Shown: one piece after another, positions 32,484-47,408 of the stretch
Layout of the letters: each line of letters begins with the position of its first letter
Position numbering within the stretch: the first letter of the stretch is position 1
Assembly (NCBI GenBank): GCA_031400975.1
Contig: JANNQX010000269.1
Span: forward strand, 10,687-74,686
DNA from: Gemmatimonadota bacterium
GTDB taxonomy: Bacteria > Gemmatimonadota > Gemmatimonadetes > Gemmatimonadales > GWC2-71-9
Direction of reading: 5' to 3'
Length of the DNA stretch: 64,000 nucleotides
The notes under the pieces: generated by a model
What the model was told of the DNA's origin: nothing
The model's database searches: none
Seen by the model: only the letters and a program-made list of their open reading frames with translations
Program-made: the position numbers and the translations under genes

Positions 32484-33121
32484 TGACCGGTTTCTTTCTA
32501 GTGCTCGAAGGGCCGGAAGGCGCCGGGAAAACGACGCTTGCCCACGAGCTTGGCCGGCGAATGCAGACCTTCGGCCTCGATCCACTCATCGTGAGGGAGC
32601 CTGGCGGGACGCCGGCAGCCGAGGCGTTGCGCCAGGAATTGCTCCACGATGTGCGAGCCTGGACCCCGGAGGCCGAGCTGTTGTACATGTGCACGGCTCG
32701 GGCCGACCTGGTGGCGAAGCTGATTCGTCCAGCGCTCGACGCGGGTCGGGTCGTGCTCTCGGATCGGTTCGACCTTTCGACCCGAGTGTATCAAGGGGCC
32801 GGCCGTGGCGTCCCCGAGTCCCAGGTTGACTGGGTCAACCGGGCCGCCACCGGCGGCTTGGTGCCCGACCTGACGGTGGTACTCGATGTGCCTCCGGAAG
32901 TCGGTGAGGCTCGGCAAGTGCAACAGGGTAAGCTTCGGGATCGGCTCGATCGCGAGACCGTGGAATTCCATCGCCGGGTTCGGGCCGCTTATCGCCAAGC
33001 GGCCGGCCCAGGTGTCGTCCACCAGGATGCGACGGTGGCGCCGGCGGCGCTGGTGACGGCGGTGTGGACGTTGCTGGGAACGGCGCGACCGGATCTCTTT
33101 GGCCAAGAACGGGCATCGTAA
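32480..33121 (+). CDS. tmk: dTMP (thymidylate) kinase
   Basis: P-loop FFLVLEGPEGAGKTT, then VREPGGT and the DRF...S..YQG motif (SDRFDLSTRVYQGAGRG). Confidence 0.93.
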   Translation: MMTGFFLVLEGPEGAGKTTLAHELGRRMQTFGLDPLIVREPGGTPAAEALRQELLHDVRAWTPEAELLYMCTARADLVAKLIRPALDAGRVVLSDRFDLSTRVYQGAGRGVPESQVDWVNRAATGGLVPDLTVVLDVPPEVGEARQVQQGKLRDRLDRETVEFHRRVRAAYRQAAGPGVVHQDATVAPAALVTAVWTLLGTARPDLFGQERAS

Positions 33122-34425
33122 TGCGAATCCGGTGGGTCGTACTCGCGGCCGTGGCGATCGGTGCTTTCTTGGGCGGCGGTTGGTTACTTCGGCGCGGCCT
33201 GACCATGATGACGCCGAACGGCCGGGCCTCCTCAGACCCGCCCGGGTCGATGGGGTCGCCTAACCGGCTCTTTTCGGCGGTACTCGAAACGGTTCGCAGT
33301 CACGCGGTCGATTCGTTGGACGACCCGTCGATCTACGGCCTGGCGACGTCGGGTCTCCTCAGTGAATTGAAAGATCCCTACGCGACGTTCGTCTCGGCTG
33401 GCGATACCGTTGCCGATCGGATTGGAGCAACGCCGGTCCAGGGCGTCTACTTGGACCGAGTCGAAGACTTCGTCGAGGTCGTTGGCGTGGTGCCGGGTTC
33501 GCCGGCTGCGGTGGCGGGAATCCGGCCGGGCGACGCGGTGATCCGGGTTGGCCCGGCCCGGATCGAGTACCAGCGGCCGGAGGCGGTCGCGGCGATGATC
33601 GACGGCGATTCTGGAACCTCGATCAAGGTTCGACTTGCTCGTCAGGGCGGCGGCCCCCCGCTTTGGGTGACGATTGCCCGTGGTCCGGTGCCTCAATACT
33701 CGGCTCCGAGTCTGACTGTTGATGGTGGGATCTCGGTGCTCCGGGTTTACCAGATCGACGCCCCAGCCGTTGCGATGATTCGGGCAGCGGTCGATTCTGT
33801 GGCCGGGGCCGGTGTCCGCGGCGTGGTCCTGGACCTTCGCGGAGTGGTTGAGGGTTCCTTGACCGATGCGGTCGCCCTCGCGAGCAGATTTCTCGACCAA
33901 GGGCAGTTGATCGTGACCGTCCGCGGTCGGGCAGGGACCGACTCGACGCTGTTCTTGGCTCAGGGGCCTTCGCCGTCGACGGGGGAGATCGCGTTGGTCG
34001 TGTTGGTCGATCGTGGGACGGCGGGCGCCGCGGAAGTGGTGGCATCGGCGCTCCAGGATCACGATCGGGGGGCCGTCGTTGGGGAAGTCACCTTCGGCCG
34101 TGGCGGTCGACAGTCGTACTATCCGCTTCCGAATGGGTCGATTCTTCGACTTACCACCGCCTTCTGGGTGACGCCGAGCGGCCGGGTCATCCAGCGCCAA
34201 CTGCCGGCGACCGACGCCTCGACCGACAGCACGCCGCCGCGCCCCAAGTTCAAAACCGATGCGGGGCGAACCGTCCTCGGTGGCGGAGGCGTGGTTCCCG
34301 ATCGGGAGGTGACGGCGGGCGAGGAGCCGAGCCGAGTGACCGATCCAGCCATGGCGCTAGCCCGGCTGTTGTTGTCGCGGGGCAAGACGCGCCGGGCGCT
34401 GATCGCGGCACTCCCGGCCAACTGA
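33121..34425 (+). CDS. S41 (C-terminal processing peptidase)-like PDZ protein, catalytic dyad apparently substituted
   Basis: TAATG junction with tmk. TM/signal, PDZ (VVGVVPGSPAAVAGIRPGDAVIRVG) and an S41 core. The canonical motifs read DLRGVVEG (normally DLRGNGGG), GTAGAAE (normally GSASASE) and TFGRG (normally TFGKG). Confidence 0.75.
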   Translation: MRIRWVVLAAVAIGAFLGGGWLLRRGLTMMTPNGRASSDPPGSMGSPNRLFSAVLETVRSHAVDSLDDPSIYGLATSGLLSELKDPYATFVSAGDTVADRIGATPVQGVYLDRVEDFVEVVGVVPGSPAAVAGIRPGDAVIRVGPARIEYQRPEAVAAMIDGDSGTSIKVRLARQGGGPPLWVTIARGPVPQYSAPSLTVDGGISVLRVYQIDAPAVAMIRAAVDSVAGAGVRGVVLDLRGVVEGSLTDAVALASRFLDQGQLIVTVRGRAGTDSTLFLAQGPSPSTGEIALVVLVDRGTAGAAEVVASALQDHDRGAVVGEVTFGRGGRQSYYPLPNGSILRLTTAFWVTPSGRVIQRQLPATDASTDSTPPRPKFKTDAGRTVLGGGGVVPDREVTAGEEPSRVTDPAMALARLLLSRGKTRRALIAALPAN

Positions 34426-34426
34426 G

Positions 34427-35275
34427 GTGACCGGCCTCCCGGCGATCGCCATCATCGGGGCCGGGCGGCTCGGTCGGACGATCGGCGAACGGTTGGCGGC
34501 CGCTGGGGGGGTGGTTCGATTCGTCGTCCGTCGGGCCGGCCGGAATCTGCCGGCGCCCGCGTTCGGCGTCGATGATGTCGCGGCTTACCGGGGTGTTCGT
34601 TGGATACTGGTTGCCACTCCAGACGATCAAATTTGGGCCGCGGCGCGTCATCTCGCCGGATTCGGCGTGATCGGGCGCTACCACACCGTCATCCATCTCT
34701 CGGGCGCCCTCGATCGATCCGCCCTCAAACCCCTTCAGCTAACCGGGGCGGCACTCGGGTCGGTTCATCCACTGCAGAGCGTCGCCCTGCCAGCCGCCGG
34801 GGCTAACCGGCTCCGGGGCTCTTTTGCCGGGCTTGAGGGTGACCCGCGGGCGATTCGGGCCGGGCGGCGGCTCGCCATAGAGCTCGGCATGACACCCGTC
34901 GTGCTCCCTTTGGGCTCGAAGCCGGCCTATCACGCCGCCGGGACGATGGTCTCAACCTTTCTCGTCGTACTGTACCAAATGGCGGTTGACCAAGCGGAGA
35001 AGGCGGGGATCGCACCGAGGCACGCCCGGGCGATGTTTTTGCCGTTGATGGAGGGCACGGTTGAAAATCTGCGACTGTTGCCACCCCGGCATGCCATGAC
35101 CGGCGCCGTCCGGCGGGGCGATGTCGCGACGATCAAAGCCCATTTGGCGGCCCTTCCCAAAGCCGAACGCGAGCTCTACTCCTCCCTGACTCGCCGGGCG
35201 GTAGCCCTGGCTCGGACTCTGGCCACCCCGCCAGGTCGGCTCTCCGAGATCGAAGGCCTGCTGCCGGTCCGTTAG
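34427..35275 (+). CDS. Rossmann-fold / DUF2520-type putative oxidoreductase
   Basis: GTG start 2 nt after the upstream stop. N-terminal GxGxxG (IAIIGAGRLGRTIG) and a C-terminal helical domain (GPARRGD-like: MTGAVRRGDVATIKAHL). Confidence 0.6.
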   Translation: MTGLPAIAIIGAGRLGRTIGERLAAAGGVVRFVVRRAGRNLPAPAFGVDDVAAYRGVRWILVATPDDQIWAAARHLAGFGVIGRYHTVIHLSGALDRSALKPLQLTGAALGSVHPLQSVALPAAGANRLRGSFAGLEGDPRAIRAGRRLAIELGMTPVVLPLGSKPAYHAAGTMVSTFLVVLYQMAVDQAEKAGIAPRHARAMFLPLMEGTVENLRLLPPRHAMTGAVRRGDVATIKAHLAALPKAERELYSSLTRRAVALARTLATPPGRLSEIEGLLPVR

Positions 35276-35931
35276 CCGGGCGGAGCCACGATCTTTACTC
35301 CCTTGGGGACGGCGAACTGAAAAGTGCTCGGGGACACCGAAATGTTCGGTCGGAGGCGGCTCAAGATCACGATCCGCCGAGCCCCGCCACCCTCATCGAG
35401 CACAATCCGCCTCGGGAGCGCGTCGTCGACCCCAAGCCAAAGGCGGGCCTTCTTGAATGGGACGCTTTCAGTCGTCGGGACTAAATCGATGACGTCCATG
35501 CTGAGGCCTCCGGTGTTGGTGCGTTCGACATAGCTGACTCGGTACCGGTCCTGGGGCCGGTCGAGAAGCACATCGAGCAGATTCACGCCGTAGACCGGGT
35601 CATTCGGTAGCGGGGAGCGGAAGACGACGTCCGGGGAAGTGCTTGGGGTATAGGTCCAGATCGACTTGCCATCCACGACCACAGCCTCGCCGGCCGGGTC
35701 GCTGAACCGCATCGCAAACAGGTTTTTCCCCGATTGGGTGACTGTGCCCCGGCTGACGAGGGTGTCGCCTTGGGATCGGTCCTCGATGGTTTGGACGAAG
35801 TCGGCTTGGAGCGAGCCCAGGTTTCGGTAGATCCGACCGGCCCGCCCGACGATCGCCGTGGCGTCCTGGGCAAGAGCGGTCCCACCCAATCCGGCCGCCA
35901 GCAGCCCGGCCACGCCAACCACCCGGCTCAC
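35272..35931 (-). CDS. lolA: outer-membrane lipoprotein carrier protein LolA family
   Basis: Signal peptide plus LGSLQADFVQTIED...VSRGTVTQSGKNLFAMRF...VVDGKSIWTYTP, the LolA pattern. Confidence 0.8.
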   Translation of the reverse strand: MSRVVGVAGLLAAGLGGTALAQDATAIVGRAGRIYRNLGSLQADFVQTIEDRSQGDTLVSRGTVTQSGKNLFAMRFSDPAGEAVVVDGKSIWTYTPSTSPDVVFRSPLPNDPVYGVNLLDVLLDRPQDRYRVSYVERTNTGGLSMDVIDLVPTTESVPFKKARLWLGVDDALPRRIVLDEGGGARRIVILSRLRPNISVSPSTFQFAVPKGVKIVAPPG

Positions 35932-36968
35932 AGCCCAGCCTTGGCGCGCCCGGCGACCGTGCGGCCCAATACCGAAGCGATCTGACGGGTCTCGTCCATC
36001 AGCAGTTCAAATTGCTCGGGGTAGAGGGTCTGGGCCCCGTCGGAGAGCGCTTGGTCCGGGTGGACATGGACCTCAATGAGGAGGCCATCGGCACCGGCCG
36101 CCACCGCGGCCCTCGCCATTGGTCGAACCATGGCGCGCCGTCCGGTCCCATGACTGGGGTCGGCCAGAATCGGAAGATGGGAGAGCTGCTTGATGGCGGG
36201 GATGACGTTGAGGTCGAAGACGTTCCGGGCCGTGGAGTCGGTCCCGCGGATCCCGCGCTCGCAGAGAACGACGTTAGGATTTCCCTCGGCCATCAGATAC
36301 TCGGCCGACATCAGCCATTCGGTCACGGTGGCGGAGGGGCCTCGTTTGAGCAGCACCGGCTTTCCGCATCGGCCCGCTCGTTTGAGGAGGCTGAAGTTTT
36401 GCATGTTTCGGGCCCCGAGCTGAACAATGTCAGCGGTGTCGGCCACCGTGTCGAGCCCTTCGTCATCCATGGCCTCGGTCACGATGAGGAGGCCGGTCTC
36501 GGTTCGGACCTGCCGGAGCAGGTCGAGCCCCACGGTGCCGAGCCCTTGAAAGGCGTACGGCGACGTCCGAGGCTTGAAGGCCCCGGCTCGAAGGGCGACC
36601 GCGCCCGAGCGCTTGACGGCTTCGGCCGTTTCGAGAATCTGCGACTCGCTCTCGACCGAACAGGGTCCGGCGATGATGAACAACTCGGTCCCGCCGATCG
36701 AGAGCCCGTTGGGGAGCTGAATGACGGTCGGGTCGGGTCGCCAATCGCGGGCCACCATTCGATATGGCTTGGTGAGCGCGATGACCTCTTCGACACCTGG
36801 CAGAGCCAAGAAGCGGGCCCCGTCGATCCGGCCGTCATTGCCGAGGACCGCGATGGTCTTTCGGCGTAGTCCCGGAATCGCGGTGGCACCGAATCCCAGT
36901 TCCCGAACCAACGCGGTAACCCGCTCCTCGTCGGTGGCGGAGGCGTCGGCTCGCAGCAGGATCAACAT
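35928..36968 (-). CDS. 3-deoxy-7-phosphoheptulonate (DAHP) synthase, type I-beta with N-terminal regulatory domain
   Basis: IIAGPCSVESESQILETAEAVKRSGAVALRAGAFKPRTSPYAFQGLG, KRG motif (LLKRGPSATVTEW), ILADPSHGTGRR, and an N-terminal ferredoxin-like extension of about 70 aa. Confidence 0.92.
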   Translation of the reverse strand: MLILLRADASATDEERVTALVRELGFGATAIPGLRRKTIAVLGNDGRIDGARFLALPGVEEVIALTKPYRMVARDWRPDPTVIQLPNGLSIGGTELFIIAGPCSVESESQILETAEAVKRSGAVALRAGAFKPRTSPYAFQGLGTVGLDLLRQVRTETGLLIVTEAMDDEGLDTVADTADIVQLGARNMQNFSLLKRAGRCGKPVLLKRGPSATVTEWLMSAEYLMAEGNPNVVLCERGIRGTDSTARNVFDLNVIPAIKQLSHLPILADPSHGTGRRAMVRPMARAAVAAGADGLLIEVHVHPDQALSDGAQTLYPEQFELLMDETRQIASVLGRTVAGRAKAGL

Positions 36969-40533: not shown

Positions 40534-41967
40534 CTACTCCCGGATCGGCGGATTGGTCAGGACGAAGTAGGGTCGTCCGAGCTTGCGGCCGGTTTCCTCG
40601 GCTGCTTCGCGGGTACCGAACGGGCCGACGATGACGCGAAATCCTTCGTCGGTGGTGGCGGGGTCGATGACCTTGGCCGGGAACCCGGCGCTCGACAGTT
40701 GCTTGGCGAAGTCTCGCGACCACTCAGCGCTTTGCGAGCTGCTCACCTGGAGATACAGGCGGTCGGTGACGGTGGCGTCGGAATCGGAGACGACCAGCAG
40801 GCTATCCTGGGTCACGAGCGCGGACTCCGCGACGGCAGCCGCCAGCGTCTGGCGGTCCTTGGGGAGCCAGGTCGTGACAATCCAGCGGTCGGTGGCACCG
40901 CCGGGGATTCGGCCGGTTTCCCGGCTCGTCCCGCCGAGCGCCAGCGCCACGACATCGCCGTTGCGACGGGCGAGGAGCGTGGCCGCGCCCGCCACCGTGG
41001 GGAGATCGTCCGACCAGCCGGCCTCGATGGTGCCGGCAAGGCGGGTGGTGGCCAAATCAACGACCCAGACGCTGTCTCCGGTCCGCGGCCGCGCCAATAG
41101 CCATCGGCCCGAACCATCGGTTCGGATCTCAGCCGCCTCGCCGGGCAGTTTGATCGAGGCCAGCCGCTCGAGCGAGTACCGCTCGATCACGTCAATCGTC
41201 CGATCGCCGTAGGCAACGTAGATCCGGTGAGCGGACGGGCTGAAGACCATGGCGACCGGCCTTTGCTTCGTTGGGACAGACCGGGTCGAGTAGGGGGCGT
41301 CGGTTTGATACAGCGTCACGCCGTCGGACGCCGCCACGGCGACCAGTTCTCCCCAATAGGTGGCGACCGCCGGCCCGTCGACGATGACGGCGCTGTGCAG
41401 TTGCCGTTCGGGCGACAACACAACGATCCGACGGGGTTTGGCGCCGAGTACGGCGATGTATCGATCGCTGAGGGTGCCGGTCTGAAAGACCGGCGCGTGG
41501 GGGAGGGGCGTCTTGTATTGGATCGGAACCCCGCCCTGGTACCGGGCCACCCGGTTCAGAGCACCGAGCACGAACACGCTTCCGTTCGGCACCATGGATG
41601 CTGATTCCACCCCGGTCGCAAACTGGCGGAGGCCGCGGCTCTCGAGGTCGACGGCGAACAGATTGCCGGCGGTGTCGACGGCCCAAAGAAGGTGGGCTTC
41701 GGCGTTGATCCCGACCACCTCGCGGATACTCGGCGCCACGGCCCTGCTGCTCCAAATCGGATCGCCGAGGCTATCGGGATTGAAGGCTTCGACAACCCCG
41801 CCGCCCTCAGGGACCCGAATCAGGGAGGCTTGCCCGCCGACCGCCGGCAAGTCGGGCGGGGTCTCGACCTCGGCCGCGGGGCAGCCGGCCACCACCCAAA
41901 GGCCGGCAATCAGCAGGCTCCAGCGCCGGACGGTTGCTAGAATGTTGGGCCGAGGCTGATCGTCCAC
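40534..41967 (-). CDS. SPOR-domain lipoprotein with predicted beta-propeller-like body
   Basis: Lipobox LLIAGLWVVAGC. Long beta-rich middle region. C-terminal SPOR (LYLQVSSSQSAEWSRDFAKQLSSAGFPAKVIDPATTDEGFRVIVGPFGTREAAEETGRKL). The ATG lies 31 nt inside the upstream gene. Confidence 0.7.
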   Translation of the reverse strand: MDDQPRPNILATVRRWSLLIAGLWVVAGCPAAEVETPPDLPAVGGQASLIRVPEGGGVVEAFNPDSLGDPIWSSRAVAPSIREVVGINAEAHLLWAVDTAGNLFAVDLESRGLRQFATGVESASMVPNGSVFVLGALNRVARYQGGVPIQYKTPLPHAPVFQTGTLSDRYIAVLGAKPRRIVVLSPERQLHSAVIVDGPAVATYWGELVAVAASDGVTLYQTDAPYSTRSVPTKQRPVAMVFSPSAHRIYVAYGDRTIDVIERYSLERLASIKLPGEAAEIRTDGSGRWLLARPRTGDSVWVVDLATTRLAGTIEAGWSDDLPTVAGAATLLARRNGDVVALALGGTSRETGRIPGGATDRWIVTTWLPKDRQTLAAAVAESALVTQDSLLVVSDSDATVTDRLYLQVSSSQSAEWSRDFAKQLSSAGFPAKVIDPATTDEGFRVIVGPFGTREAAEETGRKLGRPYFVLTNPPIRE

Positions 41968-44900
41968 ACCCCACCTACGGATCGCTGGAGCGGCCGGGTG
42001 TAATCCAGCCGAAGGATCAGGAAGTTAAGGACATTGGCCCGGAGGGAAACCCCGTAGCTGGTCAGGGGGGTCCGGGTACAGGTGCCCAGTAGCTGGCCGG
42101 TCTGACCATTCCGACTACAGACATTGGTTTGGCCGGCCGACCGTTTGAGTTGCACGGTCATGCCATCCTCCCAGAACACCCCCGCGTCGAAGAAGACCGC
42201 CGCCTCAAGGGCTCCGGGAAATCCCCGGATCGGAATGAAGCCCAGCCCCCCGGCTATCAGTGGGAACCGGACTTCGGCATTGAACACCGCCGCCCGGGTC
42301 CCGATCAGCTCATCGAAAGACGAACAGCCGGTGATCGATTGCTGGTCATTGGATTCGAGGCATTCATTTTTCCGGAACGACCCGGCGGTATACCCCCGAA
42401 TCAGCTCGGTGTTCCCACCGTAGAAGCGGAACCTGCTTTCATCACGACCCATTCGGCCATAGAACATCCCGCGGGTCGCGAGGACGACGTTGCCGATCAG
42501 TCGATCGTAGCGCCGCATATCCGCCGTCACCGAGGTGAACTTCCATCCCTCGCCGATCACCTCGAAGTTCTGGCCGACTTCAAATCGAGACCGGCGTCCG
42601 AGAAACGGGCCCACGTAGGCGGACAGTGAGTTGTCATGCACGTAGGCAAGTGATGGCTGGAGGTAGGTGATGCTCTCGAGGCCCCTGGTCTCTAACGTCG
42701 GCTGCCGGCTCGGAAGGCCGGAATTGCTGAAATACGGTTCCCGGATCTCGAGGATATCGTTCTGAATATTGGCGAACGAGACGGTCCCTTCCACTCGCGA
42801 GAAACGAGTGAACGGATAGAATCCCTGGGCTGAGATGTCGCGGAGGACCAGCCGTTGGATACTGGTGATGAAGGTGGTCTCTTGGTTCGTTGGTCCCGGT
42901 TCGAGCGAGCTGTTGTTGTAGAAGAAGTACGGCTGCTGCTGGATCCCGAACGCCCAGTTGAAGCGGTTCTTCAAGTTGACATATTGGGCCACGAACTGGG
43001 TTTCCGGGAGCCGGCCGTTCAGGGAGGCTCCAAACACCAGTTGCTGGTTCGAAAGCATGTCACCGAGGACCACGGTGGCCGAGCCGGTGACGCCGCGCCC
43101 AAAGTTGTCGCGGGTATACCCGATCGTGGGGCGGGCAACGTATTCCGCTTCAAACTTGGTCTTATACGGACGGTGGATGAAATCGGTGGTGTCGGGCGCC
43201 TTGATGTCGACCGAATCGAGCAGCTTGGCGATGGTCAGCGGCCCCGCGGCGTCTTTGACCGAATCGGCCGTAGGGGGTAGGGAATCGGTTCGCCGAAAGC
43301 CGGTGGGTCCGCGATAGAGCGCGCTGGAAGTCAAAACTTCCGGCGACTTCGGGGTTGCCGCCGCTTGGGCCGAGTCCTGGACCACCGGACGAAAGGCCGG
43401 AACCGGCTGCGATTGGACCAGGACTTGGATCGGGGCCTGATTTGGCACCCAGGGCGCCTTCTTCAGCGTGCGCGGGTTCGCGAGCGAGTAGATATCGTAC
43501 TTCCCCTGCTCGAAGTAGACGAAAGCCATCCGGTCGGAACCGCGGGACCAGGACAGTACCGGCGAGAGCGGGGTGATGCCCTGAACCCCAGTGTAGAAAT
43601 CGGTCAGCTGATAAACCTGTCGGTCGCCGAGGTCGTACAGGTAGAGGTTGGCGACCTCGTTGCGGTCGGAAACGAACCCGATGGATTGGCCGTCGGGCGC
43701 CCATTGGGGGCTCGAGTTTCGGCCATGATCCATCCCTGGGAGGACCTCGATGGTCCCGGTGTCGAGGTGGAAGAGCGCGATCCGCAGCTGGCCCCATTTG
43801 AGGGATGCGAAATCGGTCAACGGCCCCCGGTCGGTCGCGAAGGCAATTGTCTTGCCGTCCGGCGACCAGACCGGGTGGAGGTCGGCGAACTTGTCATTGG
43901 TCAGCCGCTTGAAGCCGGTACCGTCGACGTTGATCAGGTAGAGATCTGAGATCCCACCTTCGAGCCCGGTGAAAACGACTTGCTTCCCATCCGGACTGAA
44001 AGTCGGGGTCGTGACCCCCGACAACGGCACGGTGATTCCCCGAACTTGCCGGTTCTTCGCGGGATCGACGATCACGATATCGTCCTTGCCTCCGCGCTTG
44101 GCCGCGAAGGTCAGCATGGTTCCGTCTTCGGACCAGGCTGCCGACGACGTGAAGTATCGAAACGTCTCGTAGTTACCCGTAAAGCTAGAGTTGAGCAGCC
44201 GCCGAATCGGCTTGCCGGTGTTGCCATCGGCCATCCACAAGTCGATGAAGAAGAAGTCCTTTTCGCTGAAGTAGACGACTCGGGATCCGTCCGGTGAGAG
44301 GGCGGGGGCCAAGTGCCAGGTCCCTTCCGAGGTCTTCTGGTTCAGCAGCGGAGCGGCCACCGCCCGGGCCTTGACCCGCTTCCCGATCTCCGGGAGGTAT
44401 TGCTTGGTCACCGCGTCTTGCCACTGGACCACCAATTGGTCGAAGGTCATGCCGAGAACCCGGCGGAGCGACGTTTCGAGTCCGCCCCCGATCGCGTTCT
44501 TGGTAATAGCTCCGATGGCCTCGTCGCCCCAACGTTGCCCGATATAGGTGACGAGCGCGTGCCCGAATTGATACGGGAATACCTGGAGGAAATCGTTTGC
44601 CGATGGGAGCTTGCCTTCAATAGCGCCATCGCGGAGCCACATCGCGGTCTTGGTGTCGATTGGGCCGAGGGATAAGTACTCCGACATCCCCTCACCGAAC
44701 CAGAGCGGGGCATTGGCGCTGATGATGCCCTGGATGCCCGCGCCCCCCCGGCCACGACTCCAGATGTCAAACTGAAATTGGTGGACCATTTCGTGCGCCA
44801 GGACGTGCTCGTTGTCCGCGTACGAACCGGTCAGCGGGAACGTGTTTCGATGGCGGAGGAAGTCGGTGAAGCCGCCGGTGCCTTCATCGACGCCGCCGCC

Positions 44901-45209
44901 GCCGAGGTTCGTTTGTTGGAAGTCGGTGTGCGAGCTGTACAAGATGATTGGCTTGCGTTCCTCGAACTCGTGATTGAGAATCCGAGACAGTCGGGCGTAC
45001 GAGCGTTCCGCCATTCGGGCGACGTCGAGCGCCGCTGGACGTTCGCTCTCGTAGTAATAGACATCGAAATGTTCGGTTTGGATAATCTTGAAATCAAACC
45101 GGCCGTATTGAACCCGGTTCCGACCGAAGTATTGGGCCGAAACCAGGGCGGGGGCCAGGATCAGCCCAAGGAGCAACGGGATGAGGCGACGCATGATCAG
45201 GCCTTTCAT
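41937..45209 (-). CDS. multidomain outer-membrane protein: HExxH (MA-clan-like) domain + PD40/TolB-type propeller repeats + Omp85-type (bacterial surface antigen) beta-barrel
   Basis: Signal peptide (RRLIPLLLGLILAPALVSAQ). HEMVH at aa 139-143 with downstream WFGEGMSEY. PD40 repeats (LSPDGSRVVYF, FSPDGKQVVFT, WSPDGKTIAFA, WAPDGQSIGFV). Omp85 barrel motifs (FYGGNTELIRGY, AVFNAEVRFPL, AAVFFDAGVFW, LRLDYTRPL) and a terminal Phe. Confidence 0.85.
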   Translation of the reverse strand: MKGLIMRRLIPLLLGLILAPALVSAQYFGRNRVQYGRFDFKIIQTEHFDVYYYESERPAALDVARMAERSYARLSRILNHEFEERKPIILYSSHTDFQQTNLGGGGVDEGTGGFTDFLRHRNTFPLTGSYADNEHVLAHEMVHQFQFDIWSRGRGGAGIQGIISANAPLWFGEGMSEYLSLGPIDTKTAMWLRDGAIEGKLPSANDFLQVFPYQFGHALVTYIGQRWGDEAIGAITKNAIGGGLETSLRRVLGMTFDQLVVQWQDAVTKQYLPEIGKRVKARAVAAPLLNQKTSEGTWHLAPALSPDGSRVVYFSEKDFFFIDLWMADGNTGKPIRRLLNSSFTGNYETFRYFTSSAAWSEDGTMLTFAAKRGGKDDIVIVDPAKNRQVRGITVPLSGVTTPTFSPDGKQVVFTGLEGGISDLYLINVDGTGFKRLTNDKFADLHPVWSPDGKTIAFATDRGPLTDFASLKWGQLRIALFHLDTGTIEVLPGMDHGRNSSPQWAPDGQSIGFVSDRNEVANLYLYDLGDRQVYQLTDFYTGVQGITPLSPVLSWSRGSDRMAFVYFEQGKYDIYSLANPRTLKKAPWVPNQAPIQVLVQSQPVPAFRPVVQDSAQAAATPKSPEVLTSSALYRGPTGFRRTDSLPPTADSVKDAAGPLTIAKLLDSVDIKAPDTTDFIHRPYKTKFEAEYVARPTIGYTRDNFGRGVTGSATVVLGDMLSNQQLVFGASLNGRLPETQFVAQYVNLKNRFNWAFGIQQQPYFFYNNSSLEPGPTNQETTFITSIQRLVLRDISAQGFYPFTRFSRVEGTVSFANIQNDILEIREPYFSNSGLPSRQPTLETRGLESITYLQPSLAYVHDNSLSAYVGPFLGRRSRFEVGQNFEVIGEGWKFTSVTADMRRYDRLIGNVVLATRGMFYGRMGRDESRFRFYGGNTELIRGYTAGSFRKNECLESNDQQSITGCSSFDELIGTRAAVFNAEVRFPLIAGGLGFIPIRGFPGALEAAVFFDAGVFWEDGMTVQLKRSAGQTNVCSRNGQTGQLLGTCTRTPLTSYGVSLRANVLNFLILRLDYTRPLQRSVGGVWTISLGPTF

Positions 45210-45562
45210 TCGGGCGCCGGCGTGAAGCTGACAACGGGTGCATCATTCCAGAGTCGCTCGAGTTGGTAGAAGCGGCGCGCCTCCGGGTGAAAAACGTGGA
45301 CGACAAAATCAAAGAAATCGAGCAGAGCCCAGCGTCCCCCCTGGAGGCCCTCGACGTGATGGGGATGGATTCCGAGTCGGGCCAGCCGCTCGAGGATCGA
45401 CGACGCGACACCGCGGACGTGGGCGTCGGAGGTCCCGCTCGCCACGACGTAGTAGTCAGTGGCATTAGACAGCCCCCGTAAATCGAGGGCAACGATCTGC
45501 TGGGCGTTTCGGTCGTCGGCCGCTTCCAGGGCGGCCTGGATCGCGGACGGCAGTCGTTTCAT
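45206..45562 (-). CDS. rsfS: ribosome silencing factor RsfS
   Basis: Trimmed to ATG 45562 (118 aa). IVALDLRGLSNATDYYVVASGTSDAHVRGVA...GGRWALLDFFDFVVHVFHPEARRFYQLERLW. Confidence 0.92.
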   Translation of the reverse strand: MKRLPSAIQAALEAADDRNAQQIVALDLRGLSNATDYYVVASGTSDAHVRGVASSILERLARLGIHPHHVEGLQGGRWALLDFFDFVVHVFHPEARRFYQLERLWNDAPVVSFTPAPE

Positions 45563-45569
45563 TCGGACG

Positions 45570-47408
45570 TCAACCACGGGGGCCTTTGTCTGGTTGCGCA
45601 GGGGTACCATCCTCGACCTGGTAACATACGGCCCAGGCGCCTGGGCCTGCGTGTGTGCCCAAGACGCCAGTGGCAAGGACCACGAAGCAGTCCCGGGGCT
45701 GATAGGCCGCCACCAACGCGGTCCGCAACCGCTCGGCGACTTCCGGGTTTTCGGCGTGGGCGATCCCGAACCGAAGGGCCTTGGGCCGCGGCGTAAGGGC
45801 ACGGTCCACCCAATGGAGGACCCGAGCCACCAACTGCTCGCGGCCCCGAACCCGGTCGATCGGGACGACTCGCCCGGTTTGATCGAGTGACAGGATCGGC
45901 TTGACGTCGAGCATGCCGGCAAGCCATGCCTTTCCTCTCGATACGCGGCCAGATCGCAAAAGGTTCTCATAGCGGTCGACTGTCAAAAACAGCCCCGATT
46001 GGGACCGTACCCTTTCAAGCTCTTTGACAATTGCTTTTGCGCTCCACCCTGACTCGGCCAGTTCGCCCGCCCGGAGGGCCAACAACCCAAGGCCAAGGGA
46101 GGCCGACTTGCTGTCAAAGATCTCGATGCGCTCGAGCTGGGCCGCCTTGACCGCGGCCTGACCGGCCTGGACGGTGCCCGACAGCCCGCCCGAGAGGAGG
46201 ACGGCCACGACTTCGTCGGCCTCAGCGAGACTGGACCGGAATGTCTTGATGAACTCGCCGGGCGTCGGCTGCGAGGTCGTGGGCAGGTCCTTCGCGGTTC
46301 GAAGCTTACGGTAGAACTCCTCAGGCTTGAGGACGACTCGGTCGCGGTAGCTGGTGTCCCCAAAGGTGACTTGGAGGGGGATCAGGGCGATCCGGTGCCG
46401 ATCGAGGACTGAGTCGGGGAGGTCGGCCGACGAGTCGGTCACGATTGCCACCGGCCGCCGTTCGGGGTGCCCGAGCCCTAAGTGCTGGGCCCGCATGTCG
46501 TCAGCCTTGCGAGAGGCCACGGTCCCCCACCGGCCGGCCGCGGCGTAGACCGCCTCAGGCGTATCCGTGTGGACGTGGATCTTCAAAATGTCCCCGATCT
46601 GGGCCACTACCACGGAGCCACCGTACTGATGGAGCAGGGTCCGAACCTCATTCGAGGGCGGGAGGTGATCGCCTCGAATGACGCATTCGGTGCAAAACTG
46701 GTAGTCCCGCTCGGCGGCCACCACGAACTCGGCCGCGGGATTGAATCCAGGCTCATGGCTTAAGGTGGGGGCGGCAAGAATCGGATCGCCTTCGATCAGC
46801 CGGACGACGCCTTCGAGCATCCGGACAAAGCCCTTACCTCCGGCATCCACCACCCCGGCTTCGCGGAGCACGGCCAGGAGCGAGGGCGTTCGGGCCAGGG
46901 CCTCCTGGCCCTCGGCCAGCATCTTTCGCATGAACTCCGCCAGGTCGACACTGGTCTCGGCCGCCTTCTCGGCGGCGGTGGCGGCGTCGCGAGCCACGGT
47001 GAGAATGGTGCCTTCGCGGGGCTCGTCGAGCGAAAGGTACAGGGTGTCCGAGGCCCGCCGGAGGGCTGCGGCGATGACCGAGGCGGTCGCGGTGGCCCGG
47101 TCGCCGATCGATTCGGAAAATCCGAGGAGAAAATGGGCCAACAACATCCCGGAATTCCCGCGAGCACCGAGGACCGCCGCGCGGGCGGCCGTCTGGGCCG
47201 TGGTCCCGAGCGGAGCATCGCCCTGGGCTTGAAGCGCGTCGGCGACGGCGCGAAGGGTCAAGCTGAAATTGGTCCCGGTGTCGCCGTCCGGCACCGGGAA
47301 TACATTCAGCCGGTTGATCTCATCTCGCCCGGCCTGGACCCAGTCGGCCGCCGCATACATGGACCGAGCCAGCCTCGGTCCGTCCACATACGCGATGCCG
47401 ACTGGCAT
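45570..47408 (-). CDS. fusion protein: DhaL/Dak2 (FakA/YloV-like N-terminal + middle domains) fused to a DegV (FakB-like) fatty-acid-binding domain
   Basis: N-terminus: INRLNVFPVPDGDTGTNFSLT (Dak2). Middle: YQFCTECVIRG. C-terminus: VAIVTDSSADLP...PLQVTFGDTSYRD...LPTTSQPTPGEF...LSGGLSGTVQAGQ...IFDSKSASLGLGLL...DRYENLLRSGRVS...KPIL (canonical DegV). Confidence 0.85.
   Translation of the reverse strand: MPVGIAYVDGPRLARSMYAAADWVQAGRDEINRLNVFPVPDGDTGTNFSLTLRAVADALQAQGDAPLGTTAQTAARAAVLGARGNSGMLLAHFLLGFSESIGDRATATASVIAAALRRASDTLYLSLDEPREGTILTVARDAATAAEKAAETSVDLAEFMRKMLAEGQEALARTPSLLAVLREAGVVDAGGKGFVRMLEGVVRLIEGDPILAAPTLSHEPGFNPAAEFVVAAERDYQFCTECVIRGDHLPPSNEVRTLLHQYGGSVVVAQIGDILKIHVHTDTPEAVYAAAGRWGTVASRKADDMRAQHLGLGHPERRPVAIVTDSSADLPDSVLDRHRIALIPLQVTFGDTSYRDRVVLKPEEFYRKLRTAKDLPTTSQPTPGEFIKTFRSSLAEADEVVAVLLSGGLSGTVQAGQAAVKAAQLERIEIFDSKSASLGLGLLALRAGELAESGWSAKAIVKELERVRSQSGLFLTVDRYENLLRSGRVSRGKAWLAGMLDVKPILSLDQTGRVVPIDRVRGREQLVARVLHWVDRALTPRPKALRFGIAHAENPEVAERLRTALVAAYQPRDCFVVLATGVLGTHAGPGAWAVCYQVEDGTPAQPDKGPRG

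Follow-up and report, generated by a model that had tools for sequence, protein, structure and literature searches.

A 64,000-nucleotide stretch of DNA from a Gemmatimonadota bacterium of the Gemmatimonadales lineage GWC2-71-9 (assembly GCA_031400975.1, contig JANNQX010000269.1, positions 10,687 to 74,686), hereafter the window, carries a minus-strand gene whose 1090-residue product joins a signal peptide, a zinc-peptidase domain of the gluzincin type, a six-bladed β-propeller and an Omp85-type β-barrel in one polypeptide. Our findings directly support each of the three folds, a catalytic site with its residues intact, the lack of POTRA domains and the wide vertical conservation of this protein. 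We favor, with moderate confidence, the interpretation that it is a zinc peptidase that is anchored in the outer membrane, faces the periplasm, is gated by its propeller and serves a housekeeping role in the cell envelope; the earlier note on this sequence had guessed at an outer-membrane-anchored protease or an envelope quality-control factor, which coincides with our reading. The architecture itself is not a fresh discovery, having been catalogued in 2014, and the window protein is a further member of that group. To our knowledge, what is new is the conservation of the mature N-terminal tail, the clade-specific tether between propeller and barrel, and the behavior of the gene as a core gene of Gemmatimonadota, in place of the patchy distribution inferred in 2014. 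Further new details are the strict pairing of the loop cysteines and the restriction of both the long linker and an overlapping SPOR lipoprotein gene to Gemmatimonadales.

Domain architecture and catalytic residues

The full-length AlphaFold2 (AF2) model, built from 72 homologues, has a mean predicted local distance difference test score (pLDDT) of 81 and a predicted template modeling score of 0.73. Residues 22-292 were also modeled separately (pLDDT 74) and compared with the PDB by Foldseek, with the 50 best matches considered. Conservation was followed in a wide set of 50 aligned sequences at 31-78% identity to the query, cysteines were counted in this distant set and in 72 close relatives, and family-level Pfam scans covered the barrel and N-terminal segments of 13 relatives as well as 8 distant representatives. 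Distant full-length representatives share 39-43% identity in the N-terminal domain. Averaged over the 50-sequence alignment, conservation falls from the peptidase (0.59) through the propeller (0.56) to the barrel (0.47), with the linker at 0.10.

In the model, residues 34-285 form an α/β domain with the HExxH motif on helix 130-150 and E173 on helix 169-181. All 50 of the best PDB matches of the separately modeled domain are gluzincin peptidases, led by the peptidase domains of clostridial collagenases (ColG 7zbv, E 8.3e-4, TM 0.58) and followed by M1 aminopeptidases, the M30 peptidase lugdulysin and M61 peptidases. The N-terminal segments of the 13 relatives match the Pfam families BSP (13/13), Peptidase_M9 (11/13, best 7e-7) and Peptidase_MA_2 (11/13), and one distant member (P0239) exceeds the gathering score of the last of these. 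A HMMER profile of the domain gave a marginal collagenase match in the PDB (E 0.059), which served for residue alignment and not as evidence on its own. In that alignment H139, E140, H143, E173 and Y213 lie opposite chain residues 405, 406, 409, 433 and 477 of the Grimontia hollisae collagenase, which, with a construct offset of 87, are His492, Glu493, His496, Glu520 and Tyr564. In this collagenase His492, His496 and Glu520 are the zinc ligands, Glu493 is catalytic, and the Ala variant of Tyr564 is without peptidase activity (PMC9304777). The five aligned residues, together with G174 and E177, are invariant in the 50 sequences, and this correspondence with the catalytic residues of the collagenase gives the domain a complete catalytic set. 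Judged by these residues the domain is apparently catalytically competent, and the set is compatible with an endo- or an exopeptidase without deciding between the two. A placement in family M9 was considered and rejected, as the query has no Peptidase_M9 match, its relatives reach 7e-7 at best, and there is no collagenase activator domain because the peptidase domain begins directly after the signal peptide in the model. Upstream of the HExxH motif, a glycine-rich loop keeps G110, T111, G112, G113 and T115 each in at least 45/50 sequences, with low pLDDT for residues 98-111, and is a candidate for the substrate-binding edge strand.

The central part of the protein is defined by five PD40 stretches (E 8.7e-27), the sole family above curated cut-offs on the query, and by six blades in the AF2 model. 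TolB is matched in the PDB by sequence at 1.5e-16 and by Foldseek at 3.5e-11, the Foldseek search with the full model also finds tricorn protease and S9 peptidases, and precomputed matches across the homologues include PF26549 and PF26550, the Tricorn_N and Tricorn_2nd propeller families. The protein is not an orthologue of TolB: the TIGR02800 profile reaches 129.3 bits where 343.15 are required, and the match is limited to its propeller, profile positions 192-401. Between propeller and barrel, the wider stretch of residues 590-670 has 80 residues in the query against a family-wide median of 31, and the long Pro/Ala/Ser-rich tether is, by sequence comparison, specific to the Gemmatimonadales clade.

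The AF2 model of the C-terminal part shows a barrel of 16 long strands at residues 687-1088, mostly at pLDDT 80-95, in which a loop of 50 residues joins strands 11 and 12. Foldseek aligns this barrel with BamA (6t1w_A, E 1.6e-8; also 7ojf, 9hg5 and 5d0q), and the BamA barrel 9cs2_A gives a TM score of 0.54. In sequence searches PF01103 (Omp85/Bac_surface_Ag) has no match at E<=1 on the query itself, and a HMMER profile of the barrel has no match among PDB sequences even at E<=10. The same Pfam family matches the barrel segments of 11/13 relatives (best 1.5e-15), and five of the eight distant representatives pass its 24-bit gathering score, such that the query belongs to the Omp85 proteins by transitive homology. 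The barrel motifs are likewise retained, with R938, G939 and Y940 of IRGY (residues 937-940, nucleotides 42390-42401) kept in 48/50, 50/50 and 43/50 sequences, F1006 and D1008 of FFDAG in 50/50 and G1010 in 47/50, and a C-terminal W or F, here F, in all 50. In BamA and TamA the loop-6 RGY and strand-13 FxDxG motifs lock loop 6 inside the barrel lumen. Neither PF07244 nor PF08479, the POTRA families, matches the query at E<=1, and in the model the segment that connects propeller and barrel consists of a disordered linker, a hairpin of low confidence and a single short helix, with no β-α-α-β-β unit. The family-wide median spacer of 31 residues is too short for a POTRA domain of about 75 residues, and POTRA domains are therefore absent, which is the known exception that defines the non-POTRA Omp85 subfamilies.

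These results confirm most of what had been read from the letters of the sequence. The HExxH metalloprotease-like domain with a downstream Glu ligand stands on the Pfam matches of the relatives, the model and the all-gluzincin Foldseek list; the prediction of at least five PD40/TolB-type repeats agrees with the five Pfam stretches and six modeled blades; and the POTRA-less Omp85 barrel is upheld by the 16-strand model, the BamA match, the PF01103 matches of the relatives and the failure to detect POTRA domains. The IRGY, FFDAG and terminal Phe motifs of the barrel proved to be real, the frame of 1090 residues was found exactly as placed, and the HEMVH motif was correctly located at residues 139-143. 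A signal peptide had also been called, and a hydrophobic core, a predicted cleavage between VSA and Q and a small residue (A, G or S) at position -1 in 48/50 relatives agree with it. NCBI holds an identical product of 1085 residues that begins at the second ATG (M6), which suggests that the true start may be nucleotide 45194. The full-length query retrieved more than 6,000 homologues; the gene is thus real and widespread, and a chance reading frame is not at issue.

The proposal of two disulfide-type cysteine pairs in barrel loops held in part. The protein has exactly four cysteines, which the AF2 strand map assigns to loops 6 and 7, and no sequence among the 72 close and 50 distant relatives has a single cysteine in either loop, a strict pairing that fits disulfides. 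The loop-6 pair, C950/C962, occurs in 72/72 close relatives and in 44/50 distant ones, six of which have no cysteine in loop 6, and is therefore the one that is family-wide. The loop-7 pair, C1031/C1044, found in 8/72 close and 3/50 wide relatives with neither residue in the rest, belongs to the closest relatives only, and we reject it as a family feature.

The most conserved ten-residue stretch of the protein is the mature N-terminal tail, QYFGRNKVQY, with a mean column identity of 0.94 against 0.88 for the HExxH stretch in the 50 sequences. Q26, F28 and G29 are each found in 50/50, and the tail is conserved within the family at about 35% identity. It starts with the invariant Gln exactly at the predicted signal-peptidase site and both models give it a pLDDT of less than 50. 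For its role, a docking strand, an autoinhibitory strand and a pyroglutamate cap are all candidates. A part as the closing "velcro" strand of the propeller appears unlikely from the model, in which strand 286-289 already occupies the start of the propeller. The coordinates of all these features are collected in Table 1.

Table 1. Features of the window protein and of the gene that overlaps it downstream (positions in the window)
Feature	Position	Strand	Basis or remark
Whole open reading frame, 1090 residues, stop codon included	41937..45209	-	List of open reading frames; alternative start M6 at nucleotide 45194
Sec-type signal peptide, residues 1-25, predicted cleavage between VSA and Q	45135..45209	-	Sequence; modeled helix 3-22
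Mature N-terminal tail QYFGRNRVQY, residues 26-35	45105..45134	-	Conservation
Gluzincin (clan MA(E)) zinc-peptidase domain, residues 37-285	44355..45101	-	Foldseek; Pfam on relatives; collagenase 7wss is the best PDB sequence match
Gly-rich loop EGTGGFTD, residues 109-116, about 30 residues upstream of HExxH	44862..44885	-	Conservation
HEMVH, predicted zinc-binding/catalytic motif (H139, E140, H143)	44781..44795	-	Invariant in 50/50
WFGEGMSEY, residues 170-178, with E173 as predicted third zinc ligand	44676..44702	-	E173, G174 and E177 each 50/50
Y213, candidate transition-state-stabilizing tyrosine	44571..44573	-	Invariant in the 50-sequence alignment
Six-bladed TolB/PD40-type β-propeller, residues 286-590	43440..44354	-	Pfam; PDB search; Foldseek; AF2 strand map
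Disordered Pro/Ala/Ser-rich linker, residues 596-660	43230..43424	-	pLDDT <50; conservation 0.10
16-stranded Omp85-type β-barrel, residues 687-1090, aromatic end	41940..43151	-	AF2; Foldseek; PF01103 in relatives
Loop 6, residues 921-971, between strands 11 and 12	42297..42449	-	Carries IRGY and C950/C962
FFDAG, residues 1006-1010, (F/G)xDxG motif on strand 13	42180..42194	-	F1006 and D1008 50/50; G1010 47/50
Loop-7 Cys pair C1031/C1044, clade-specific	42078..42119	-	8/72 close and 3/50 wide relatives, otherwise none
Downstream gene: lipoprotein-type signal (LWVVAGC), β-propeller, SPOR domain	40534..41967	-	Overlaps the target gene by 31 nucleotides

Distribution and gene neighborhood

Searches with the N-terminal domain alone returned 3,626 clusters at 50% identity, 717 of them at E<=1e-30, and the top matches that are not fragments are proteins of 1,000-1,100 residues with the domain at their N-terminus. 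Relatives of this domain were confirmed at 561 places in species-representative genomes, the best 80 of which all belong to Gemmatimonadota. Other branches of the family lie in Balneolaceae (Fodinibius roseus, Gracilimonas, Halalkalibaculum), Rhodocaloribacter (Rhodothermia), Calditrichota, Marinimicrobia and Longimicrobiales. In 39/39 Gemmatimonadales loci with full flanks, the gene order runs from rsfS through the target gene and the gene for a propeller and SPOR lipoprotein to smc and DAHP synthase, and within Gemmatimonadota the target behaves as a vertically inherited core gene.

The names given to the family in databases are inconsistent (BamA/TamA family outer membrane protein, peptidase S9, DPP IV N-terminal domain, basic secretory protein-like, PD40 domain, Tol biopolymer transport system component) and none of them covers the whole architecture. 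The names "peptidase S9" and "DPP IV N-terminal domain" are misnomers driven by the propeller, as neither Pfam nor the model shows a serine-hydrolase domain.

The downstream gene encodes a product with the signal LLIAGLWVVAGC and a C-terminal SPOR (septal peptidoglycan-binding) domain at 1.2e-8, while its propeller is matched weakly and below cut-off by Pfam. It diverges faster than the target, at 31-59% identity against 50-72% for the target over the 39/39 adjacent Gemmatimonadales loci, and its product is a partner candidate in Gemmatimonadales only. The gene is absent beside the five distant members we examined, which makes any such partnership lineage-specific. In all five the whole order of rsfS, target, SPOR lipoprotein gene and smc is gone, and we therefore rejected this arrangement as family-wide evidence for function.

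The genes around the target, from the fakA/degV fusion through rsfS, the target and the SPOR gene to smc, look like a single tightly packed block on the minus strand. The stop codon of the rsfS frame (45206..45970, minus strand) overlaps the first ATG of the target as ATGA. As called mechanically, this frame has 254 residues and overlaps the preceding FakA/DegV-fusion frame by about 400 nucleotides, and its RsfS domain occupies residues 146-241 only, which places the real rsfS start probably much further downstream. The preceding frame (45570..47408, minus strand, 612 residues) fuses Dak2 and a FakA-like middle domain to a fatty-acid-binding DegV domain and is conserved in 33 of the 39 syntenic loci; the two-protein system that is better known has the Dak2/FakA-like and DegV parts as separate proteins. 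Further envelope-related genes lie nearby (33064..36968), among them an S41 (Ctp/Prc-type) peptidase with a PDZ domain (33064..34425, plus strand) and a LolA-like lipoprotein carrier (35272..35931, minus strand) adjoining the DAHP synthase gene, the latter found at that position in 1/39 syntenic loci, a count that may in part reflect limited flanks. A metagenome-assembled genome of Gemmatimonadaceae has a copy of about 36% identity to the window protein (L083, 6001-9099), with a MoxR/DUF58 cluster upstream and histidine kinases downstream, and this copy in an unrelated context suggests two paralogous lineages of the family within Gemmatimonadota. In Gracilimonas sp. Q87 a gene that lies some 3 kb away from that of the family member (L081, 11938-15078) encodes a 1110-residue protein that combines Tricorn_N/PD40 propellers with an Amidohydro_1 domain, a different fusion of propeller and hydrolase.

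Proposed topology and function at the outer membrane

In the interpretation that we favor, the protein would be exported by the Sec route, lose its signal peptide before Q26 and insert its C-terminal 16-stranded barrel in the outer membrane. An even number of strands and a barrel that starts on the periplasmic side would leave the N-terminal module in the periplasm, where peptidase and propeller are expected to hang, in this clade on a flexible tether of about 65 residues. The retained loop-6 lock is consistent with this topology, as is the precedent of PlpD, the only studied Omp85 protein with an N-terminal enzyme domain, whose domain in this patatin-Omp85 (type Vd) protein of Pseudomonas aeruginosa is exclusively periplasmic (PMC11116518). 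The gluzincin domain would be catalytically competent, and the fused propeller may act as a substrate filter or recruitment platform, as in tricorn, dipeptidyl peptidase IV (DPP-IV) and S9 peptidases, so that access to the zinc site would be limited to unfolded chains or peptides. Its likely job would be the housekeeping turnover or quality control of envelope proteins at the outer membrane, which are the substrates we infer. The conserved order in all 39 loci, the restriction of the best 80 of 561 relatives to Gemmatimonadota and the position of the peptidase as the most conserved domain argue for a housekeeping role, and the overlap with the gene for a peptidoglycan-binding lipoprotein in Gemmatimonadales argues for a link to the envelope.

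Several points weigh against this interpretation. The topology is argued from analogy and strand parity, and a propeller that gates or covers the active site from analogy to tricorn and S9 peptidases only. The query protein itself has no peptidase family above the curated Pfam and NCBIfam cut-offs, and the five distant members lie in five unrelated neighborhoods that offer no family-wide neighbor hinting at substrates. The ultra-conserved N-terminal tail has no place in the proposed model, and our literature searches found no experimental work on any WD40-Omp85 member. The earlier note had asked whether the architecture already has an experimentally defined function, and none was found in the literature.

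One alternative is that the protein trims nutrient peptides, as a tethered oligopeptidase or aminopeptidase acting in the periplasm on imported peptides, with the barrel as a mere anchor and without any tie to quality control of the envelope. Both the structural matches here and the Phyre2 matches of 2014 include M1 aminopeptidases, propeller-gated oligopeptidases such as S9 and tricorn enzymes are classic peptide trimmers, and one distant member adjoins a SusC/SusD pair. Across the five distant members, however, neither peptide transporters nor nutrient loci are consistently associated with the gene, a mere anchor would seem not to need the complete Omp85 functional motifs, and the core-gene synteny with rsfS and smc points elsewhere, such that we regard this explanation as unlikely.

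We are similarly doubtful of surface display, a type-V-like secretion in which the barrel would translocate its own peptidase-propeller passenger by way of the linker, for extracellular protein degradation in the service of nutrition. The model does place a flexible linker before the barrel, the closest folds include secreted collagenases, this mode of action was the original proposal for the patatin-Omp85 protein PlpD, and relatives of the TpsB type do translocate proteins (PMC4104836). Against it, the enzyme domain of PlpD proved to be exclusively periplasmic (PMC11116518), the loop-6 RGY and strand-13 FxDxG lumen-lock motifs are kept, and the linker has only about 31 residues family-wide. 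Furthermore, a passenger of about 560 residues including the propeller would need to cross unfolded, the POTRA domain present in both TpsB (type Vb) and type-Vd PlpD is absent, and the gene belongs, in Gemmatimonadales, to the syntenic core and lies among housekeeping genes, not in nutrient-acquisition loci.

Least probable in our estimate is an accessory β-barrel assembly factor, the "BamA fused to BamB" put forward by Heinz & Lithgow (PMC4104836), with the barrel as insertase, the propeller as partner scaffold and the HExxH domain as a non-enzymatic substrate-binding or chaperone domain. The barrel does retain the motifs and fold of BamA, and the Gemmatimonadales neighbor encodes a propeller lipoprotein reminiscent of BamB. 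A scaffold without catalysis, however, would hardly account for a full HExxH/Glu/Tyr set that is invariant at 31-78% identity, conservation is higher in the peptidase domain than in the barrel, and the POTRA domains that would take in substrates are missing. The organisms listed as lacking BamA do not include Gemmatimonas, Rhodothermus or Caldithrix, which makes the window protein unlikely to be the primary insertase.

An extension of the favored reading, a periplasmic zinc peptidase anchored by its barrel, would turn the protein into a self-contained outer-membrane quality-control machine, in effect the β-barrel assembly machinery (BAM) and BepA in one polypeptide. The lateral gate of the barrel would take up stalled or misfolded β-barrels or lipoproteins and feed them to the tethered, propeller-gated peptidase, and the tail QYFGRNKVQY, possibly capped by pyroglutamate, would either plug the active site in a regulated way or serve as a strand that docks to the barrel or a partner, so that the enzyme is on only at the membrane. 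We offer this as speculation that in its entirety is improbable.

The biogenesis of the outer membrane depends centrally on Omp85 proteins, whose well-studied members all use POTRA domains. The non-POTRA subfamilies represent the re-use of the barrel scaffold for other jobs, of which only the patatin type (PlpD) has been studied so far. The subfamily considered here is large, is a core gene of Gemmatimonadota and, going by its residues, apparently carries a zinc peptidase with full activity. Knowing its topology and substrates would reveal how the envelope is maintained in little-studied, environmentally abundant diderm phyla, and would test whether Omp85 barrels can act as anchors or gates for degradative enzymes. 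As cultured hosts exist (Fodinibius, Gracilimonas, Halalkalibaculum), the question is experimentally approachable.

Relation to known systems

In their 2014 survey, Heinz & Lithgow described ten bacterial Omp85/TpsB subfamilies, including a "WD40-Omp85" group of 62 proteins with PF07676, with or without detectable PF01103 (PMC4104836). The window protein is a member by domain content, sharing the PF07676 PD40 repeats, a PF01103-type barrel, the lack of POTRA domains and an aminopeptidase-like N-terminus. Table S3 of the survey lists Phyre2 matches of WD40-Omp85 members, of the barrel to BamA/TamA, of the propeller to TolB and of the N-terminus, under the column title "best aminopeptidase hit," to M1 aminopeptidases (1z5h, 4kxd, 4fgm), collagenase (4ar1) or, once, tricorn (1k32), at 98.7-100; the main text treats only the propeller, as a BamA and BamB-like fusion, and does not mention the peptidase domain (PMC4104836). 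A later account describes the WD40-like subfamily as not well characterized (Hanson et al. 2024, PMC11116518), and our PDB searches found no solved structure of the peptidase-propeller-Omp85 architecture. For the minor Omp85 subfamilies, those other than BamA/TamA, the survey inferred a patchy distribution of the kind produced by horizontal gene transfer (PMC4104836), whereas here we find a syntenic core gene across Gemmatimonadales and a family that counts about 3,600 clusters at the 50% identity level. In the same survey the name "Metallo" stands for another Omp85 subfamily, which carries PF00149, a different domain, and is not the group in question.

The individual parts of the protein each have known counterparts from which they depart. 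M9 collagenases (ColG, ColH and the Grimontia enzyme Ghcol) and M1 peptidases share with the N-terminal domain a common thermolysin-like gluzincin fold, with HExxH, a Glu on the next helix and an aligned Tyr, though identity is only 9-16% and the window protein is without the collagenase activator domain and without the N- and C-terminal domains of M1. The propeller is most similar to that of TolB, whose N-terminal, TolA-binding α/β domain is absent here. Tricorn, DPP-IV and S9 peptidases likewise fuse a propeller to a peptidase domain, which suggests gating, but in those enzymes a serine hydrolase lies C-terminal to the propeller, whereas here a metallopeptidase lies N-terminal to it.

For the protein as a whole, the best functional analogue is PlpD, an Omp85 barrel with an N-terminal hydrolytic enzyme domain, in which the Omp85 scaffold is re-used as an enzyme anchor and for which dimerization and strand-swapping have been seen. 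PlpD combines a patatin lipase with one POTRA domain, in contrast to the zinc peptidase and propeller of the window protein, which has none. The pairing of BAM with BepA is also comparable in concept, since it brings together, at the outer membrane, an Omp85 barrel, a zinc metalloprotease of the periplasm and a scaffold of repeats. BepA is a separate, soluble M48 protein with tetratricopeptide repeats and is not homologous to the peptidase domain described here, whereas the window protein would bring an M9/M1-like peptidase to the barrel by covalent fusion.

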